IMG/VR virus record: IMGVR_UViG_3300016702_000415
From: a virus
Reading direction: 5' to 3' (one strand)
DNA: 10,726 bases
The notes under the pieces are model-generated. The model ran no database searches. It was not told the DNA's origin and saw only the letters and a list, made by a program, of their open reading frames with translations. The translations under genes and the position numbers were made by a program. This document shows, in pieces, positions 1-5,202 of the stretch. The number at the start of each line of letters is the position of its first letter. Positions within the stretch are counted from its first letter, which is position 1.

Positions 1-7
1 AGATCCG

Positions 8-40
8 TTGCATGTAGAGCCTTGTGCTCCGTGCATAAAG
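8..40 (+). promoter_or_regulatory. Possible sigma70-like promoter for the first tRNA: TTGCAT at 8-13, AT-rich CATAAA near 34-39, tRNA 5-prime end at 46
   Basis: Hexamer resemblance only. Spacing of about 20 nt is suboptimal. Confidence 0.2.
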
Positions 41-45
41 CCCTT

Positions 46-120
46 CGGGATGTAGCCTAGAGGTCAGGCACGTGATTTGGGATCACGGCCACGCAGGTTC
101 GAGTCCTGCCATCCCGACCA
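46..120 (+). tRNA. tRNA-Pro (anticodon TGG), 72 nt plus encoded CCA
   Basis: Hand-folded canonical cloverleaf. Acceptor is CGGGATG/CATCCCG. D-stem is GCCT/AGGC. Anticodon stem CGTGA/TCACG encloses loop TTTGGGA with U33 and G37. T-arm is GCAGG-TTCGAGT-CCTGC. Discriminator is A, followed by CCA. Confidence 0.85.
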
Positions 121-124
121 AAAT

Positions 125-201
125 CAGGGAGTAGCGCAGTCTGGTAGCGTGCTCCGTTCGGATCGGAGAAGTCGGTGGTTCAAATCCACCCTCCCTGACC
201 A
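125..201 (+). tRNA. tRNA-Pro (anticodon CGG), 74 nt plus CCA
   Basis: Acceptor is CAGGGAG/CTCCCTG. D-arm is GCGC-AGTCTGGTA-GCGT. Anticodon stem CTCCG/CGGAG encloses loop TTCGGAT. T-arm is GGTGG-TTCAAAT-CCACC. CCA is encoded. Confidence 0.85.
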
Positions 202-224
202 AATTCTTGTAGTAGGAGGCCGTC

Positions 225-614
225 GTGAAGAAGAAAACGTTGCGTGACGAATTGATAAAGCAAGCACTGAACGAGATCAACCCGGTTGACATCGTGGAGT
301 ATGTGCAAGCTAACTACGACACGCTTGGTAAGTCTTCTTTCAACGGCCAAGAGATTGTCATCGTCCTGGAAATCAGAAATGACGATGAAGGATATGGCAA
401 TCACTCGTATGAAGGCGTTGGTGTAGATGGCGACGGAAAGGTCTTCTACTGTTTCTCGTCCGGGTGTTCTTGTACCGGCGAATGTGGTATCGAAGGTCCG
501 CACGGCCACGACCTGACGTTGAAGAAGTTTGAAGTAAATGGTAATGCGTTTGACTTATCCAACATCGACGTAGAGACATTGAAGTCGATTCAAGTGGATT
601 TCAGCGATTACTAG
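225..614 (+). CDS. Hypothetical 129-aa protein with a C-terminal Cys cluster (CFSSGCSCTGECGI). GTG start.
   Basis: The ORF is preceded by a strong Shine-Dalgarno TAGGAGG at 213-219, 5 nt before GTG at 225. Stop is TAG at 612-614. I recognise no family. Confidence 0.55.
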   Translation: MKKKTLRDELIKQALNEINPVDIVEYVQANYDTLGKSSFNGQEIVIVLEIRNDDEGYGNHSYEGVGVDGDGKVFYCFSSGCSCTGECGIEGPHGHDLTLKKFEVNGNAFDLSNIDVETLKSIQVDFSDY

Positions 615-702
615 ACGGAGATAGAGTGGATTGGCGGCGTGAACACTGTAACTTGGACTGTGGGAACCGCCACAAGTTATTTGACAATCGAAAAAGTTTT
701 AT

Positions 703-781
703 AGCCGGGTGATGCAATTTTGGTAGACATCCTATACTCAGAATGTAGGTCTTGTGGGTTCGAGTCCCATCCCGGCTACCA
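703..781 (+). tRNA. Leu-like tRNA lacking the long variable arm (anticodon CAG), 76 nt plus CCA
   Basis: Acceptor is AGCCGGG/CCCGGCT, 7 bp. The Leu-type D-arm has a 3-4 bp stem and a long loop CAATTTTGGTAGA. Anticodon stem CCTATA/TGTAGG encloses loop CTCAGAA with U33, CAG and A37. The variable loop is only 4-5 nt. T-arm is GTGGG-TTCGAGT-CCCAT. Discriminator is A, followed by CCA. Confidence 0.6.
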
Positions 782-865
782 AGTTTGTGCGCTTCGGATG
801 ACGGAACTGGCATACGTTGTATTGAGTTCCCCGAAAGTTCTCTTTACTGTGGATCTGAGATGACC

Positions 866-921
866 ACTGCTGGCAGAGGCGGGACGCAGAGTCCTTGGGA
901 GTTCGAGTCTCCCTCCAGAAA
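866..921 (+). pseudogene. tRNA pseudogene fragment (decayed copy of the CAG Leu-like tRNA)
   Basis: A D-loop remnant CTGGCAGAGG is present. The anticodon hairpin GGGAC-GCAGA-GTCCT is truncated to a 5-nt loop that still contains CAG. The T-arm GGGAG-TTCGAGT-CTCCC is intact. The 3-prime acceptor strand TCCAGAA has no complementary 5-prime strand and there is no CCA. Confidence 0.4.
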
Positions 922-949
922 ATCTGCACATAAGCGCACATTGATTTTT

Positions 950-1143
950 GAGGCAGTAGCTCAACCTGGACAGAGCGCACTAAAACGGAGCGTGGTCCAT
1001 AGCAATGGTTCCAGAAGCACCGAAAAGAGAAATGGAACTCTGACGCCTGTGTGACTCAGGTTGGCTCTACGGAGCGTAGGGAAGCGGGTCATCCAAAGCT
1101 ATGATCGAAAGATGTACGGGTTCAAATCCCGTCTGCCTCACCA
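950..1143 (+). ncRNA. Interrupted or intron-like tRNA gene: Ile-like 5-prime acceptor and D-arm, roughly 135 nt of hairpin-rich insert, then T-arm, 3-prime acceptor and CCA
   Basis: GAGGCAG at 950-956 is perfectly complementary to CTGCCTC at 1133-1139. A canonical D-arm TAGCTCAACCTGGACAGAGCG at 957-977 resembles tRNA-Ile/Met-type D-arms. The T-arm ACGGG-TTCAAAT-CCCGT at 1116-1132 is followed by discriminator A and CCA. No anticodon arm can be folded. The intervening roughly 135 nt contains several hairpins: CTACG-GAG-CGTAG, GTTCCA/TGGAAC, and ATC-GAAA-GAT. Confidence 0.4.
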
Positions 1144-1176
1144 TTTCGTCCTACTGACTGTTATCTAAATAGGAAT

Positions 1177-1267
1177 AGAGGGCTGACAGAGCGGCAATGT
1201 GCCGGTCTTGAAAACCGTGGCCTACCTGATGAGGGTAGCGGGAGTTCAATCCTCCCGCCCTCTGCCA
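1177..1267 (+). tRNA. tRNA-Ser (anticodon TGA), class II, 88 nt plus CCA
   Basis: Acceptor is AGAGGGC/GCCCTCT. The anticodon loop is CTTGAAA. A long variable arm is present (CTACC...GGTAG). T-arm is GGGAG-TTCAATC-CTCCC. Discriminator is G, followed by CCA. Confidence 0.8.
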
Positions 1268-1273
1268 AATTTT

Positions 1274-1771
1274 ATGGGAAGACCAATTAGTCCGACAAGT
1301 TATCGACAACTTGCATTGAAAGAAGGATGCACTAAGTCAACCATTGGTTATCGACTTGGGCGTGAAACGAAATTTCATGGGCATTGTCAGCAATGTGGAC
1401 GAGAGTTGAATAGTAAGCGGAAAATACGCTTTTGTAATTCCAAATGCTATGCTGATTATCTCTATGAGAAGTACATTAGAGAGTGGAAATCGGGGCAGAT
1501 CGGTGGCGGAAGTAGTACAGGTGATGTGAGTGGACATGTGCGCCGATTTTTGTTTTCAAAGTATGAAAATCGTTGTAGTAAATGTGGATGGGCCGAAATC
1601 AATCCAACTACGGGGTTGGTTCCGCTTGAAGTCAATCACATTGATGGAAATTGCTCTAATCACATTGAAAAAAATTTGGAGTTGATATGTCCAAATTGTC
1701 ATTCCTTGACACCGACATTTCGTAGTTTGAATAAGAGAAGTAATCGAAAGCGTAAAAGTTTATGTCAGTAG
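1274..1771 (+). CDS. HNH endonuclease, 165 aa, with an N-terminal zinc ribbon
   Basis: The tiled ORF 1199-1771 begins inside the tRNA. The first in-frame ATG after the tRNA is at 1274. The HNH motif reads [25 protein letters not shown]. Upstream Cys pairs are CQQCG...CNSKC and CSKCG. Stop is TAG. Confidence 0.75.
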
Positions 1772-1837
1772 GCTTGGCAGCTACGAGCGACGGCTCACCA
1801 CCGGGATCGTTACCCGGCACGCATGTAACAGTGTGTG

Positions 1838-1878
1838 GTTTTGGACGGATTCAGGTTCGATTCCTGACTACTGGCTCA
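1838..1878 (+). pseudogene. tRNA 3-prime fragment (T-arm plus 3-prime acceptor strand, no CCA)
   Basis: TCAGG-TTCGATT-CCTGA is followed by CTACTGG. No convincing complementary 5-prime strand or anticodon arm lies within 80 nt. Upstream TGGTTTTGGACGGA resembles a decayed Leu-type D-loop. Confidence 0.35.
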
Positions 1879-1883
1879 GTTTT

Positions 1884-1969
1884 AGCCGGGTGGTGGAATG
1901 GCAGACACGCAGCGTTGAGGTCGCTGTGTCCGCAAGGACGTGTGGGTTCAAATCCCATCCTGGCTACCA
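1884..1969 (+). tRNA. tRNA-Leu (anticodon GAG), canonical class II, 83 nt plus CCA
   Basis: Acceptor is AGCCGGG/CCTGGCT with one G-U pair. Anticodon stem CAGCG/CGCTG encloses loop TTGAGGT with G37. The long variable arm is GTCC-GCAA-GGAC. T-arm is GTGGG-TTCAAAT-CCCAT. Discriminator is A, followed by CCA. Confidence 0.8.
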
Positions 1970-1981
1970 AGTTTTTGTTGA

Positions 1982-2059
1982 TGCCATGTATCCCAATTGG
2001 CAGAGGAAGCAGGTCGAGAACCTGTGAATGTGTGGGTTCGACTCCCACCGTGGCAACCA
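1982..2059 (+). tRNA. Leu-like tRNA lacking the long variable arm (anticodon GAG, C at position 33), 75 nt plus CCA
   Basis: Acceptor is TGCCATG/CGTGGCA. The Leu-type D-arm is TCC-CAATTGGCAGA-GGA. Anticodon stem GCAGG/CCTGT encloses loop TCGAGAA. The variable loop is 6 nt. T-arm is GTGGG-TTCGACT-CCCAC. Discriminator is A, followed by CCA. Confidence 0.55.
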
Positions 2060-2060
2060 T

Positions 2061-2137
2061 CAGGGAGTAGCGCAGTCTGGTAGCGTGTCCGCTTTGGAAG
2101 CGGAAAGTCGCTGGTTCGAGTCCAGCCTCCCTGACCA
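2061..2137 (+). tRNA. tRNA-Pro (anticodon TGG), 74 nt plus CCA
   Basis: The acceptor and D-arm are identical to the tRNA at 125-201 (CAGGGAGTAGCGCAGTCTGGTAGCGTG ... CTCCCTGACCA). Anticodon stem TCCGC/GCGGA encloses loop TTTGGAA. T-arm is GCTGG-TTCGAGT-CCAGC. Confidence 0.8.
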
Positions 2138-2162
2138 AATTTCGGATGCTAGATACGTGTGT

Positions 2163-2513
2163 ATGCCGGTCAAGCAATCCGCCGCCGCTGAGAAGCGGTC
2201 TAAAAAACGTGCTGAACTTCGTGCTTGGATTGCTGACTACAAGCGCACGCTGTCATGTAGTCGATGTGGGTTCAACCATCCGGCTGCTTTGCAATTCCAT
2301 CATACTGGTGCCGGTGAGAAGAAATTTGAGATTGGATCTGCTGTGATGCTGCAAAAATCGCTCAAGCAGGTCAAAGAAGAGATCGCAAAATGTGAATGCG
2401 TCTGTGCCAACTGTCATGCCGTTCATCACTACGACGAGCGGATGCTCCTGGAAGCCGATAGACAGGCTGAAGAAATGGAGTATAATGAGTTGGTAGAGGA
2501 AGAAGAATTTTAG
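2163..2513 (+). CDS. HNH endonuclease, 116 aa
   Basis: The first in-frame ATG after the tRNA is at 2163. Motifs are CSRCG and QFHH...CECVCANCHAVHH. The TAG stop at 2511-2513 overlaps the first base of the next tRNA. Confidence 0.7.
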   Translation: MPVKQSAAAEKRSKKRAELRAWIADYKRTLSCSRCGFNHPAALQFHHTGAGEKKFEIGSAVMLQKSLKQVKEEIAKCECVCANCHAVHHYDERMLLEADRQAEEMEYNELVEEEEF

Positions 2514-2599
2514 GCCGGATGGAGGAATTGGCAGTCTCGCTTGCCTTAGAAGCAAGTGCCCGGAAGGGCGTGAGGGTTCGACTCCCTCTTCGGCCACCA
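2513..2599 (+). tRNA. tRNA-Leu (anticodon TAG), class II, 84 nt plus CCA
   Basis: Acceptor is GGCCGGA/TTCGGCC. The Leu D-arm is GAG-GAATTGGCAGT-CTC. Anticodon stem CTTGC/GCAAG encloses loop CTTAGAA. The variable arm is TGCCCGGAAGGGCGT. T-arm is GAGGG-TTCGACT-CCCTC. Discriminator is A, followed by CCA. Confidence 0.8.
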
Positions 2600-2603
2600 A
2601 GTT

Positions 2604-2798
2604 ATGATGTGTTGCAACGAAGAGTTTGTGGGGCGACGGTGCCCGAAATGTGGGACGCTTCCGAAAGAGAACGAGCCGAGACCGGCTTCTGTCGAAGAGA
2701 TCATTCTCTCCAGAAAGTTTCAGAGTCGGCTGTTCACGTCGAAGCATCCGAAGACGGTTCGGTTCTCCAGAGATGAGGTACCGTGGGACCAGTGGTAG
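2604..2798 (+). CDS. Possible small zinc-ribbon protein, 64 aa (MMCC...CPKCG)
   Basis: ATG lies 5 nt after the tRNA CCA. A CxxC pair is present. A competing ORF exists in another frame, so the call is weak. Confidence 0.3.
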   Translation: MMCCNEEFVGRRCPKCGTLPKENEPRPASVEEIILSRKFQSRLFTSKHPKTVRFSRDEVPWDQW

Positions 2799-2812
2799 GA
2801 ACTTCGTCAGAA

Positions 2813-2959
2813 ATGCCCTGTACGTGCGAAGAGAAGGGCGTAGAGGCTTGCGAGAAGGTCTGGTGGTGTTGTGATTGTCGCCGTGAGATGCGGCACCGCT
2901 ACGGGGATCTATTCGCCAGATGCCGGGAATGCTGGTCGGAGATTGAAGCGAATTTGTAA
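2813..2959 (+). CDS. Possible small Cys-rich protein, 48 aa (MPCTCEEKGVEACEKVWWCCDCRREMRHRYGDLFARCRECWSEIEANL)
   Basis: Hand translation of the third frame, which the ORF track omits because it is under 60 aa. Ten Cys residues occur in CxC and CxxC spacing. The ORF ends 4 nt before the next tRNA. Confidence 0.3.
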   Translation: MPCTCEEKGVEACEKVWWCCDCRREMRHRYGDLFARCRECWSEIEANL

Positions 2960-2962
2960 TGT

Positions 2963-3049
2963 GGCCGGGTGGAGGAATTGGCAGTCTCGCTTGCCTCAAA
3001 AGCAAGTGCTGGCAACAGCGTGAGGGTTCGACTCCCTCCCCGGCCACCA
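2963..3049 (+). tRNA. tRNA-Leu (anticodon CAA), class II, 84 nt plus CCA
   Basis: Near-identical backbone to 2513-2599. Acceptor is GGCCGGG/CCCGGCC. The anticodon loop is CTCAAAA. The variable arm is TGCTGGCAACAGCGT. T-arm is GAGGG-TTCGACT-CCCTC. Confidence 0.8.
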
Positions 3050-3077
3050 AATTAGCAAACGTGGCGTGCGTATACAT

Positions 3078-3557
3078 ATGCGTATGCCAAAGAAGCACAA
3101 TAGGTATACGAAAGAGTTTTTGGAGCCGGTAGTAAAAGAAAGTGGATCGTGGGGCGACGTTTGTGAACGATGTGGAGTGAAGCGGGGATTTGGTGCAGAA
3201 AACTATCTCCGTAATGTGGCGATCAAATTTGAGATCGACTACTCTCATTTCAAAGGGCAAGGATGGGCACGAAATTTAATCTTTGACAAGAAGCCATTGG
3301 AGAAGTTTTTAGTTCTCCAATCAAAGATTACACGTTCTGAATTGCGCCGCCGTCTGATTCGAGATGGTTATAAGAAGGCTCAATGTGAAAAATGTGGATT
3401 GACGGAATGGTTGGGTGAGCCAATCGGATTGGAATTGCATCATACAAATCAGATTCCAGACGATAATAGGATTGAGAATTTGTTGGTCCTTTGTGCTAAC
3501 TGCCATACGGTTGCTGATAGAATCGCCCGCCGTCAACGAAAGTTTGAGTCAGGGTAG
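3078..3557 (+). CDS. HNH endonuclease, about 159 aa (an alternative GTG start exists at 3066)
   Basis: Motifs are CERCG and CEKCG...LELHHTNQIPDDNRIENLLVLCANCHTV. Stop is TAG at 3555-3557. Confidence 0.7.
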   Translation: MRMPKKHNRYTKEFLEPVVKESGSWGDVCERCGVKRGFGAENYLRNVAIKFEIDYSHFKGQGWARNLIFDKKPLEKFLVLQSKITRSELRRRLIRDGYKKAQCEKCGLTEWLGEPIGLELHHTNQIPDDNRIENLLVLCANCHTVADRIARRQRKFESG

Positions 3558-3571
3558 TTTAACGTGGAAAA

Positions 3572-3636
3572 ACCGGGGCGTACATTGGCGCTAGTTCAAA
3601 GCTAACCGATACGGGTTCGATGGTCCGTCCCTGGCT
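3572..3636 (+). pseudogene. Degenerate tRNA-like element (Leu-like CAA remnant): D-arm largely deleted, 8-nt T-loop, no CCA
   Basis: Acceptor-like helix is CCGGGG/CCCTGG. The anticodon hairpin GCTAG-TTCAAAG-CTAAC carries a CAA anticodon. The T-arm ACGGG-TTCGATGG-TCCGT has one extra G. The 3-prime tail is TCAA rather than CCA. Confidence 0.3.
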
Positions 3637-3743
3637 CAACAAATTATATGGTACCGCTTGTAGGTCCGTCTGAAGCTACTTGGCGACTAATACGAAAGTT
3701 GCGGAAGGCACCTATTAGCGTGAAAGTTCCAGAAGAAGTTTAT

Positions 3744-3822
3744 TGCCGTGTAGTCCAATTTGGCAGGAGACACCAGATTCAAAACCTGTACAGTGTGGGT
3801 TCGAGTCCCACCACGGCAACCA
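3744..3822 (+). tRNA. Leu-like tRNA lacking the long variable arm (anticodon CAA, weak anticodon stem), 76 nt plus CCA
   Basis: Acceptor is TGCCGTG/CACGGCA, a perfect 7 bp. The D-arm is TCC-AATTTGGCA-GGA. The anticodon loop is TTCAAAA, but only 3 bp (CAG/CTG) pair in the stem, so the gene may be partly decayed. T-arm is GTGGG-TTCGAGT-CCCAC. Discriminator is A, followed by CCA. Confidence 0.5.
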
Positions 3823-3829
3823 AAGTTTT

Positions 3830-3906
3830 GGCCCCGTACTCCAATTGGCAGAGGGAACCGGCTTAAACCCGGCACAGTGTGGGTTCGACGCCCACCGGGG
3901 CTACCA
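3830..3906 (+). tRNA. Leu-like tRNA lacking the long variable arm (anticodon TAA), 74 nt plus CCA
   Basis: Acceptor is GGCCCCG/CGGGGCT with a first G-U pair. The D-arm is TCC-AATTGGCAGAG-GGA. Anticodon stem CCGG/CCGG encloses loop CTTAAAC. The variable loop is 6 nt. T-arm is GTGGG-TTCGACG-CCCAC. Discriminator is A, followed by CCA. Confidence 0.55.
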
Positions 3907-4210: not shown

Positions 4211-4553
4211 GAAAGAAATGGTTCGCACACTTCTCAGGTTGCGTGACCCGGCGAATGAACAGGCAGTACTTGATGAAGTGTATGCTGAATTTCAGAGTGA
4301 ATATTACCCTGGTCGCCGCCAGTTGAACCGTTGCGGCCATTACAACTGCGAGTATCACGGGCTGTGCGCTGTGGTTGAATTGACGAACATTCTCAAGATG
4401 GAATTGAAATATTTGGAAGATCAGGACGACGACAATGTTTTGGGTAGTGCAGGAAAATATCAAAGACGAAGCGACATACGACCATTTCATCCAGGCACTC
4501 TATGCGTTGAACATAGAGCACACACTGGTGAAGGTAGTACCGTTCTCGCATGA
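4203..4553 (+). CDS. Hypothetical Cys/His-rich protein (CGHYNCEYHGLC). Its 3-prime end overlaps the next gene by about 119 nt, so the true extent is uncertain.
   Basis: The first roughly 78 aa look protein-like. The tail past 4435 looks like an out-of-frame read of the ATP-grasp gene. Confidence 0.3.
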   Translation: MTRKEMVRTLLRLRDPANEQAVLDEVYAEFQSEYYPGRRQLNRCGHYNCEYHGLCAVVELTNILKMELKYLEDQDDDNVLGSAGKYQRRSDIRPFHPGTLCVEHRAHTGEGSTVLA

Positions 4554-5202
4554 TGTTATTCCTGATGTGAATCCCACAGGCCGTGTGATGGTATGGGGTT
4601 CGACTACATTGGATCTTGTTGCCAAGAACAAGGGTTGGAAACCTGGGACATTTTTGAACGAGAATTTCGATCAGCGTATCTGGAGAACGAAGTATCCGAC
4701 GTTGAACGATGACGCTGAGATCCATGAGTTTGGTTCCATTCCGGCATTCGAGGGAACGAGATTTATCCGGCCCGTGCATGACATGAAAGTGTTCGCCGGG
4801 ATGGTGATCCACAACGTTGAATTGGAGCAGTGGAAGGAAACCATTCAGCGATATTCGGATGGCTACATTACGTTGCGCCCGGAGACGCCTGTGAGCATTT
4901 CCAGCGTCAAGGACATTGAGATGGAGTGGCGCTTCTTTGTGGTGTCTGGCAAGGTCGTGGCTGGCTCCAGGTACCGGCAGTGGGGATTGTCGGACCATCG
5001 GCGGATTTATGCAGCATCGGAGCCGTGGAAGTTTGCACAGGAAATGGTAGATCGCTGGCAACCAAATGAAGCGTTCGTAATTGACTTGGCGAAGGAACAC
5101 AATGATCCTTCATTCAAGGTGATCGAAGTGAATTGTATCAACTCAGCCGGGTTCTACGAATGTGACATGAAGGCCGTGATCGAGGCAATTGAGAGGTTAT
5201 GA
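4435..5202 (+). CDS. ATP-grasp fold protein (phage-type, DUF4343/RimK-related-like), 255 aa
   Basis: The N-terminus MFWVVQEN... and the motif EWRFFVVSGKVVAGSRY resemble ATP-grasp strand motifs. The family assignment is from memory, not from a search. The stop overlaps the next start as ATGA. Confidence 0.55.
   Translation: MFWVVQENIKDEATYDHFIQALYALNIEHTLVKVVPFSHDVIPDVNPTGRVMVWGSTTLDLVAKNKGWKPGTFLNENFDQRIWRTKYPTLNDDAEIHEFGSIPAFEGTRFIRPVHDMKVFAGMVIHNVELEQWKETIQRYSDGYITLRPETPVSISSVKDIEMEWRFFVVSGKVVAGSRYRQWGLSDHRRIYAASEPWKFAQEMVDRWQPNEAFVIDLAKEHNDPSFKVIEVNCINSAGFYECDMKAVIEAIERL

Follow-up and report, generated by a model that had tools for sequence, protein, structure and literature searches.

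Type I tRNALeu genes beside class II tRNALeu in a viral tRNA array: a further example of a common but little discussed phage tRNA

Introduction

Leucine tRNAs whose variable loop is short and that lack the class II arm, termed type I tRNALeu (Fan et al. 2019, NAR 47:6369, PMC6614811), have been characterized biochemically in Streptomyces coelicolor. This bacterium has one type I tRNALeu(CAA), with the variable loop A44C45A46G47C48, beside four type II isoacceptors, and its single leucyl-tRNA synthetase (LeuRS) charges both, with kcat/Km of 6.25 (type I) and 14.2 (type II) per second per micromolar (PMC6614811). Here we analyze a stretch of 10,726 nt from the IMG/VR virus record IMGVR_UViG_3300016702_000415 (the window, to which all coordinates refer unless a locus is named), in which four type I tRNALeu genes lie in a tRNA array. 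The initial annotation of this DNA had held that bacterial tRNALeu is class II by definition, a statement contradicted by the S. coelicolor tRNA and its charging by the organism's own LeuRS.

In S. coelicolor, the type I variable loop needs a minimum of 5 nt including position 48 and A14 is important, whereas A73 is no identity element; the capacity for charging type I tRNALeu maps to the leucine-specific domain of LeuRS, and human mitochondrial tRNALeu(UUR) is rejected by the S. coelicolor enzyme (PMC6614811). The window genes resemble the S. coelicolor type I tRNA in their leucine anticodons, in the 5-nt loop (ACAGC there, ACAGU in the window CAA and UAA genes and in Streptomyces phage Comrade) and in their coexistence with type II genes. 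They differ in that the S. coelicolor gene is chromosomal and a single isoacceptor, whereas the window has four phage isoacceptors, and in position 48, which is C in S. coelicolor and U, together with A15 as an Escherichia coli-type Levitt pair, in 53 of 53 phage type I sequences. The combination of U48 with A15 may matter for E. coli-type enzymes. Homology with the S. coelicolor tRNA is suggested by the variable loop and by the close match to Streptomyces phage genes.

Animal mitochondrial tRNALeu also combines a leucine anticodon, a short variable loop and A73. In mitochondrial tRNAs, however, the D and T loops are reduced and the LeuRS is a dedicated one, whereas the window genes have the canonical G18G19 and a TTCGA T loop. 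Armless forms of E. coli tRNALeu were studied in the identity work of Larkin et al. in 2002 and of Asahara et al., according to which A73 and the tertiary core of the D and T loops can reportedly suffice for E. coli LeuRS; those were engineered substrates, whereas the window genes are natural.

Type I tRNALeu genes of cultured phages (Comrade, Cali/Bxz1-like phages, phiEa21-4 and related Salmonella phages, vB_PseuGesM_254 and S-CRM01) have the same architecture and belong to the same D-arm and T-arm family as the window genes, to which they are 83-88% identical without gaps, and they too lie in tRNA arrays, often near HNH genes. The window has four type I and three type II tRNALeu genes, whereas in the stretches examined of Cali, phiEa21-4 and vB_PseuGesM_254 the only tRNALeu is type I. 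In none of the papers searched is the missing arm of the cultured-phage tRNALeu discussed. The dense one-strand arrangement of tRNAs with HNH open reading frames (ORFs) in the window is like that of the L-arrays or tRNA array units described earlier (PMC8421152, PMC5966550, PMC2330249), and mosaic cassettes among relatives are common to the window and to horizontally transferred bacterial, plasmid and phage tRNA arrays. The window contains only Pro, Leu and Ser genes and is hence part of a larger array. We found no mention of the variable arm in the three tRNA-array papers searched (PMC8421152, PMC5966550, PMC2330249).

Results

Gene Structure

ARAGORN called 14 tRNA genes in the window, all on the + strand and all with encoded CCA, comprising 3 Pro, 7 Leu and 4 Ser genes; 12 of them, including 7 of 7 Leu, pass the gathering score of 29 of the general tRNA model of Rfam, RF00005. 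We took the variable region to start after position 43 and to end before the T stem, and scored the genes also with R1, a covariance model of 43 type I tRNALeu from other phages in which the anticodon was masked. The leucine genes are as follows.

703-781, + strand: type I tRNA-Leu(CAG); ARAGORN, Rfam 40.9 bits, R1 67.9 bits
1982-2059, + strand: type I tRNA-Leu(GAG); ARAGORN, Rfam 44.8 bits, R1 71.0 bits
3744-3822, + strand: type I tRNA-Leu(CAA); ARAGORN, Rfam 48.5 bits, R1 72.8 bits
3830-3906, + strand: type I tRNA-Leu(UAA); ARAGORN, Rfam 40.9 bits, R1 76.5 bits
1884-1969, + strand: class II tRNA-Leu(GAG); ARAGORN, Rfam 49.1 bits, variable region 15 nt
2513-2599, + strand: class II tRNA-Leu(UAG); ARAGORN, Rfam 51.9 bits, variable region 15 nt
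2963-3049, + strand: class II tRNA-Leu(CAA); ARAGORN, Rfam 53.2 bits, variable region 15 nt

The initial annotation had folded the first four by hand as tRNAs with leucine anticodons and no long variable arm, and the folds hold up. ARAGORN gives variable regions of 5, 6, 5 and 5 nt for the genes at 703, 1982, 3744 and 3830, against 15 nt in the class II genes and more than 10 nt with a stem-loop in a canonical class II arm, and RF00005 calls all four as tRNA with 40.9-48.5 bits and E-values from 5e-6 to 4e-8. Their coexistence with class II tRNALeu (GAG, UAG and CAA), which had also been proposed, is borne out by the three class II genes of the same array. Without the encoded CCA, the type I genes are 76, 75, 76 and 74 nt long. 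The variable sequence consists of G44, paired with C26, and UCUU in the gene at 703, of GAAUGU in that at 1982, and of ACAGU in those at 3744 and 3830; in 703-781 the C26-G44 pair lengthens the anticodon stem.

In all four genes the acceptor stem is 7 bp long and the D stem 3 bp, with a large leucine-type D loop; all four also have A73, encoded CCA and a T stem of GTGGG/CCCAC(T), and carry their leucine anticodon (CAG, GAG, CAA and UAA) at positions 34-36 of a 7-nt loop. These shared features agree with the earlier description, apart from the T loop, which had been given as TTCGAxT throughout and is TTCGACG in 3830-3906. The latter gene also has a G1.U72 pair. Pairwise identity within the four genes is 54-71%, and the class II genes at 2513-2599 and 2963-3049 are 95% identical when anticodon and variable arm are excluded. 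The ORFs of the window use all six leucine codons, of which CUG (46/212) and UUA are matched by type I genes only.

Identity Elements

To place the genes independently of the anticodon, we compared them with 823 tRNAs called by ARAGORN in five cultured phages and 120 IMG/VR loci, leaving anticodon and variable region unscored. The nearest neighbors of the window leucine genes are almost all leucine tRNAs. Those of the genes at 1982, 3744 and 3830 are type I tRNALeu of other phages, and by this sequence comparison the three (GAG, CAA and UAA) appear to belong to a type I tRNALeu lineage found across phages of many host phyla. The gene at 703 has a mixture of type II and type I tRNALeu as neighbors, and its acceptor stem and T arm are nearly identical to those of the class II tRNA-Leu(GAG) at 1884-1969; judged on sequence, this CAG gene resembles the window's own class II tRNALeu minus the arm.

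Of 53 distinct type I tRNALeu sequences, 98% have A15 and 100% have U48, as they do A73. All three nucleotides are present together in 52 of 53 type I and 34 of 36 type II tRNALeu, but in just 94 of 586 class I tRNAs other than Leu. Type I and type II tRNALeu also share a D stem of 3 bp with a loop of 11 nt, while the D stem of other isotypes is mostly 4 bp long. On R1, in which the anticodon is masked, the window genes score 67.9-76.5 bits and outscore every non-Leu tRNA of phages T5 and phiEa21-4, the maximum among which is 65.8 bits.

Recognition by E. coli LeuRS uses A73, A14, A15-U48, G18G19 with U55C56, and U54-A58 (PMC6614811, Introduction). A73 and this tertiary core (A14, A15-U48, G18G19/U55C56 and U54-A58) are present in the four window genes, A73 being found also in all 53 type I tRNALeu. 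The E. coli-type residue 47n is missing with the long variable region, an element that cannot exist in a type I body. The variable loops of 5, 6, 5 and 5 nt, with U48 in 4 of 4, are within the minimum of at least 5 nt including nucleotide 48 determined for S. coelicolor (PMC6614811). The window genes thus have what S. coelicolor LeuRS requires, a loop of at least 5 nt, nucleotide 48 and A14. Leucylation is plausible. The earlier proposal that they could be charged is also consistent with the presence of A73, A14, A15-U48 and G18G19, all elements known to be used by LeuRS.

Distribution

BLAST searches with single window genes against 50,697 phage records found annotated tRNA-Leu genes that align over 60-73 nt without gaps, in 188 records for one query and 54 for another. 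The hosts of the matched phages include Streptomyces, Mycobacterium, Erwinia, Salmonella, Pseudomonas, Bacillus, Lactobacillus, Rhodococcus, Myxococcus, Sinorhizobium, Enterococcus and cyanobacteria. We confirmed the architecture in five of the matched records. Streptomyces phage Comrade (NC_048728) has an annotated 75-nt tRNA-Leu(caa) with 87.7% ungapped identity to 3744-3819, as well as a class II tRNA-Leu with anticodon UAG; Mycobacterium phage Cali has type I tRNALeu with anticodons CAG, GAG and CAA; Erwinia phage phiEa21-4 has CAA, AAG and UAA, one type I gene being 88% identical to 1982-2059 over 60 nt; Pseudomonas phage vB_PseuGesM_254 has CAA and UAG; and Synechococcus phage S-CRM01 has CAA. 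The sole tRNA-Leu of phage T5 is a class II UAG gene, so the experimental tRNA data for T5 say nothing on the expression of type I genes.

To estimate frequency, we treated IMG/VR loci gathered by a pattern not specific to leucine as a sample of phage tRNA arrays at large, leaving out loci selected for a leucine match. In this sample, 13 of 45 tRNA-Leu genes have the short loop, whereas 38 of 38 Ser genes and 15 of 17 for Tyr retain the long arm. By a known rule, this arm is important when tRNASer is charged and not when bacterial tRNALeu is; the loss of the arm in Leu, rarely in Tyr and never in Ser, fits this rule. The suggestion that such a set of leucine decoders may be undescribed does not survive these numbers, together with the class-I-length tRNA-Leu annotated in many cultured phages: type I tRNALeu is common yet little discussed in sequenced phages, and the window genes are a further example and no new kind of molecule. 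We found no description of short-loop tRNALeu of phages or tRNA arrays in the literature searched, which is not the same as absence from the literature.

In bacterial genomes, a pattern scan for class-I-spaced CAA anticodons produced 120 matches, 118 of them by chance; the loci retrieved with it include four tRNA arrays that contain type I tRNALeu. A chromosomal array of Adonisia turfae contains five type I tRNALeu genes with all five anticodons within 760 bp (locus L230, 589-1347), arrays in metagenome-assembled genomes of Abditibacteriaceae and Saprospiraceae contain two each, and a contig of an Akkermansiaceae metagenome-assembled genome contains one; these bacterial arrays are loci L230, L133, L207 and L225. 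One enterobacterial-phage type I tRNALeu, used as BLAST query against 5,426 complete E. coli genomes, gave no match. A plasmid search with a type I tRNA-Leu(CAA) returned a single record, NZ_LR134447.1, a 250-kb plasmid of Tsukamurella tyrosinosolvens; two places on it match with 84% identity, including 160922-160982, and no annotation lies beneath them.

Variable arms of unusual length were seen in other isotypes of the viral contigs as well. In several unrelated contigs (L004 3579-3668, which is S-CRM01 and unannotated there; L049 3742-3835; L095 10145-10234; L096 1266-1361; further in L103, L106, L114 and L118), ARAGORN called tRNA-Ile(UAU) genes whose variable arms are 21-25 nt long and in which the motif CCAGAUUAG or CCGAUUAG recurs. 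Class-II-like arms also occur on Thr, Gly, Lys, Gln, Trp, Glu and Asn tRNAs, with four such genes in L045.

Conservation and Sister Genomes

We aligned 49 distinct type I tRNALeu sequences, including the four of the window. In this family alignment, 96.6% of the cloverleaf cells are paired and 19 of 20 pairs have changed on both sides; the covariation score is 0.956, in comparison with 0.236 for shuffled data and at most 0.18 with the partners slid. T8, A14, one G of G18G19, U48, G53, T54, T55, C56, A58 and C61 are invariant, and A15 is conserved at 90% or more.

The genes are also kept among related metagenome contigs. The CAG gene at 703-781 is identical in 8 of them, the CAA gene at 3744-3822 is present in 8 of the 8 that cover the position, and the UAA gene at 3830-3906 always stands in tandem with a type I CAA gene, the CAA-UAA pair being found in every related contig covering the site. 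An A31.C39 mismatch in the anticodon stem of the window CAA gene recurs in the type I CAA genes of Comrade and S-CRM01, and in contigs L250 and L258 an A27 in the type I CAA gene restores the 27-43 pair.

In comparison with L258, window positions 1-940 and 3736-3902 are 99-100% identical, whereas 1144-3053 are only 66-79% identical. The segment 940-3736 forms a central cassette, for which L258, L253 and L250 have other tRNA alleles and other HNH ORFs; this mosaic fits, as far as the sequences go, an exchange of cassettes driven by homing endonucleases. Within the diverged cassette, the GAG allele of L253 and L258 differs from that of the window by three fully compensatory double changes (pairs 10-25, 11-24 and 28-42), by C6-G67 in place of the U6.G67 wobble and by U33 in place of C33.

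The decoders of CAG, GAG and UAA anticodons in L258 are solely type I. In L250, a class II gene of 90 nt is the sole CAG decoder; its counterpart in the window is type I. With one sister genome restricted to type I and the other to class II for CAG, the architectures swap for the same anticodon, and type I and type II are therefore interchangeable for one anticodon. Such an exchange is expected if both types are working leucine decoders.

The Array and Its Other Features

The remaining tRNA genes and the HNH ORFs between and beside them are listed here.

46-120, + strand: tRNA-Pro(UGG), ARAGORN and Rfam, at the start of the array
125-201, + strand: tRNA-Pro(CGG), ARAGORN and Rfam, at the start of the array
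2061-2137, + strand: third tRNA-Pro gene, ARAGORN
1177-1267, + strand: class II tRNA-Ser(UGA), ARAGORN
6249-6341, 6807-6897 and 7322-7411, + strand: further tRNA-Ser genes, ARAGORN
1274-1771, + strand: ORF resembling HNH homing endonucleases and flanked by tRNA genes, with HNH matches in PHROGs and Pfam
2163-2513, 3066-3557 and 6368-6808: further HNH-endonuclease-like ORFs, PHROGs and Pfam HNH matches

By the ARAGORN calls, all four tRNA-Ser genes of the window retain the long variable arm. Three tRNA-like remnants were missed at the default ARAGORN threshold. In the one at 854-920, CTGG/CCAG closes a T-arm-like TGGGAGTTCGAGTCTCCCT; this stretch is kept in every strain variant and has an R1 score of 20.4 bits. 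The one at 1760-1880 contains a T-arm-like TCAGGTTCGATTCCTGA. That at 3548-3637, with an R1 score of 17.9 bits, is called as a 90-nt "tRNA-Cys(aca)" only when the threshold is lowered. A scan for promoters and terminators gave results at chance level.

The window also holds a 194-nt tRNA-like RNA at 950-1143, on a cassette spanning 941-1147, that represents an uncatalogued family. Its acceptor stem is 7 bp long, and it has U8A9, D and T arms, A73 and CCA. At the position of the anticodon arm stands a hairpin with a conserved AAAACGRA loop, and at that of the variable arm a structured insert of about 110 nt (100-150 nt across the family). In the consensus fold, the conserved motifs GGTTSCAGAAGCACCGAA and STAGGGAAGCRCG base-pair with each other, and their closing pair covaries. 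Comrade, between annotated genes (NC_048728 80573-80727, corresponding to L267 774-928, itself unannotated), and about ten IMG/VR contigs, among them L271, L270, L272, L277, L268, L274, L279, L278 and L273, contain homologues 155-229 nt long, which share the acceptor stem, U8A9, both arms, a discriminator and the AAAACGRA hairpin. Some strains of the window's phage have the cassette and others lack it. The RNA has no match to any Rfam 15 family. We considered and rejected a transfer-messenger RNA, a Y RNA (YrlA) and a group I intron, as the RNA has no G3.U70, the wrong end topology, too small a size and no Rfam match. The annotated "tRNA-like stable RNAs" of T5 are similar in kind and lack its motifs.

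Protein genes lie within and beyond the tRNA region. An R2K-clade ATP-grasp protein at 4435-5202 (PHROG 7313, a PHROG of no known function) retrieved no related locus when used as a query in IMG/VR, and a protein of the dual-specificity or tyrosine phosphatase family with a signal-peptide-like sequence is encoded at 7425-7982. The gene at 8097-10628 encodes an 843-amino-acid protein that contains major-vault-protein domains of the shoulder and repeat types. In the phage collection, it has relatives only in LR756500, LR756501 and LR756503, uncultured phage genomes of 462-735 kb, with 39% identity over 98-99% of the length, and identical copies are found on short contigs of several JGI, ENA and Logan metagenomes. 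Given these relatives and the identical metagenome proteins, the source of the array is an uncultured and probably large phage. The stretch of the 735-kb LR756501 that surrounds its vault-protein homologue contains no tRNAs. In related contigs, more genes connected with translation adjoin the array: a 123-amino-acid ORF with an RF-1 domain (ArfB-like) lies directly downstream of the vault-like gene (L246, 4900-5271), and contig L250 contains a PTH2 peptidyl-tRNA hydrolase ORF (12555-12875).

Discussion

From the observed gene structure, leucine-type signature, conservation, covariation and swapping of type I with type II, we infer that the four genes would be expressed, leucylated and used on the ribosome. 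In the reading that we prefer, to which we give a probability of roughly 0.7, they encode leucine-accepting elongator tRNAs that are charged by the host LeuRS via A73 and the tertiary core and decode leucine codons during infection. The genes would be transcribed together with the array, and the host LeuRS would leucylate their products by reading A73 and the core (U8-A14, A15-U48 and G18G19 with U55C56), ignoring the anticodon and not strictly needing the variable arm. The charged tRNAs would then decode CUG, CUY, UUG and UUA, beside or instead of class II tRNALeu.

Several observations weigh against this reading. The R1 margin between Leu and other isotypes is only 2-11 bits. E. coli and S. 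purpurogeneiscleroticus LeuRS fail to charge the type I tRNALeu of S. coelicolor (PMC6614811), and given such differences between enzymes, acceptance of type I tRNALeu depends on the LeuRS of the host. As E. coli LeuRS rejects the natural S. coelicolor tRNA, tolerance of arm loss depends on context. The genes also show blemishes: the GAG gene has C33 where U33 is near-universal, the CAA gene has the anticodon-stem mismatches C27.U43 and A31.C39, and the UAA gene has A27.C43. Finally, the GAG and CAA decoders are present as class II genes too, so that some copies could be drifting. The C33 of 1982-2059 could have arisen by drift, the copy being redundant, or could be a change of the anticodon loop like those reported in phage tRNAs that evade anticodon nucleases.

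A different emphasis, which we regard as unlikely, is that the loss of the arm has itself been selected, as leucine decoding would survive a host defense or toxin that recognizes the long arm of class II tRNAs; a phage factor attacking the host's class II tRNAs would act alike. Candidate agents are nucleotidyltransferases of the MenT/AbiEii type and arm-dependent nucleases. AbiEii is an abortive-infection toxin, and it and MenT3 prefer class II tRNAs; MenT3 modifies tRNASer and, weakly, tRNALeu5, for which its authors point to the long arms (PMC7450476). The frequency of type I tRNALeu in phages and mobile tRNA arrays is consistent with such selection, as is the lack of a BLAST match to one type I query in 5,426 complete E. 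coli genomes. In these phages, the arm is shed only by Leu, whose synthetase can dispense with it, and kept always by Ser and almost always by Tyr. The same distribution is, however, explained by neutral loss of a dispensable arm. Moreover, the window retains three class II tRNALeu and four class II tRNASer genes that would be exposed to such a toxin, and AbiEii left tRNALeu-3 and tRNASer-4 of Mycobacterium tuberculosis unmodified in vitro. In its general form, the proposal would make type I a major, conserved and horizontally spreading tRNALeu of phages and mobile arrays (about 30% of phage tRNA-Leu in the less biased sample, always with A15-U48 and A73) that is kept since armless leucine decoding is immune to arm-recognizing toxins and nucleases; this we put forward only as a tentative idea with the odds well against it.

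That some or all of the four genes are decaying or nontranslational, as pseudogenes left by cassette shuffling, targets of homing endonucleases or uncharged decoy RNAs, seems to us quite improbable. The C33 of the GAG gene, the anticodon-stem mismatches of the CAA and UAA genes and the redundancy with class II GAG and CAA genes could be taken as signs of decay, and the array does contain tRNA-like remnants (854-920 and 3548-3636) and HNH endonuclease ORFs between its genes. But the core positions of all four genes are kept and their defects are minor; they are conserved in related contigs with compensatory changes, even the diverged cassette keeping a GAG allele of this kind, and the A31.C39 mismatch, by its recurrence in Comrade and S-CRM01, looks like a kept feature. 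Three anticodons in L258 are covered by type I genes only, and the family shows strong covariation with invariant A14, U48 and A73.

Recoding, in which another synthetase would charge the tRNAs with a different amino acid while they read leucine codons, is very improbable: a class I body is unusual for Leu and natural mistranslating tRNAs exist in other systems, but the body here is Leu-like and unlike that of any other isotype, the alanine determinant G3.U70 is found in 0 of 4 genes, there is no long arm for SerRS, and most other synthetases require their own anticodon. Both decay or decoy function and recoding fit the conservation data poorly. Mischarging and a regulatory role, which the initial annotation had also raised, gain no support from anything observed in this analysis.

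The genes of the window matter little by themselves, the tRNA type being biochemically characterized in S. coelicolor and routinely annotated in phages. The wider pattern may merit a survey. Type I tRNALeu is common in phages and mobile arrays and retains the E. coli-type LeuRS signature in full; of the three isotypes with long arms, the short form is nearly confined to Leu (never in Ser, 2 of 17 in Tyr), and in sister genomes it can replace class II for the same anticodon. How widely it occurs in phages seems to be under-reported, and cultured phage-host pairs would allow this to be tested. If armless leucine decoding did confer immunity, Leu would be the class II isotype able to lose its arm, since LeuRS alone tolerates the loss. 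The pattern raises the questions of how different LeuRS handle type I tRNALeu, given that E. coli LeuRS rejects that of S. coelicolor while enterobacterial phages carry three, and of whether phage tRNAs evade arm-dependent tRNA toxins.

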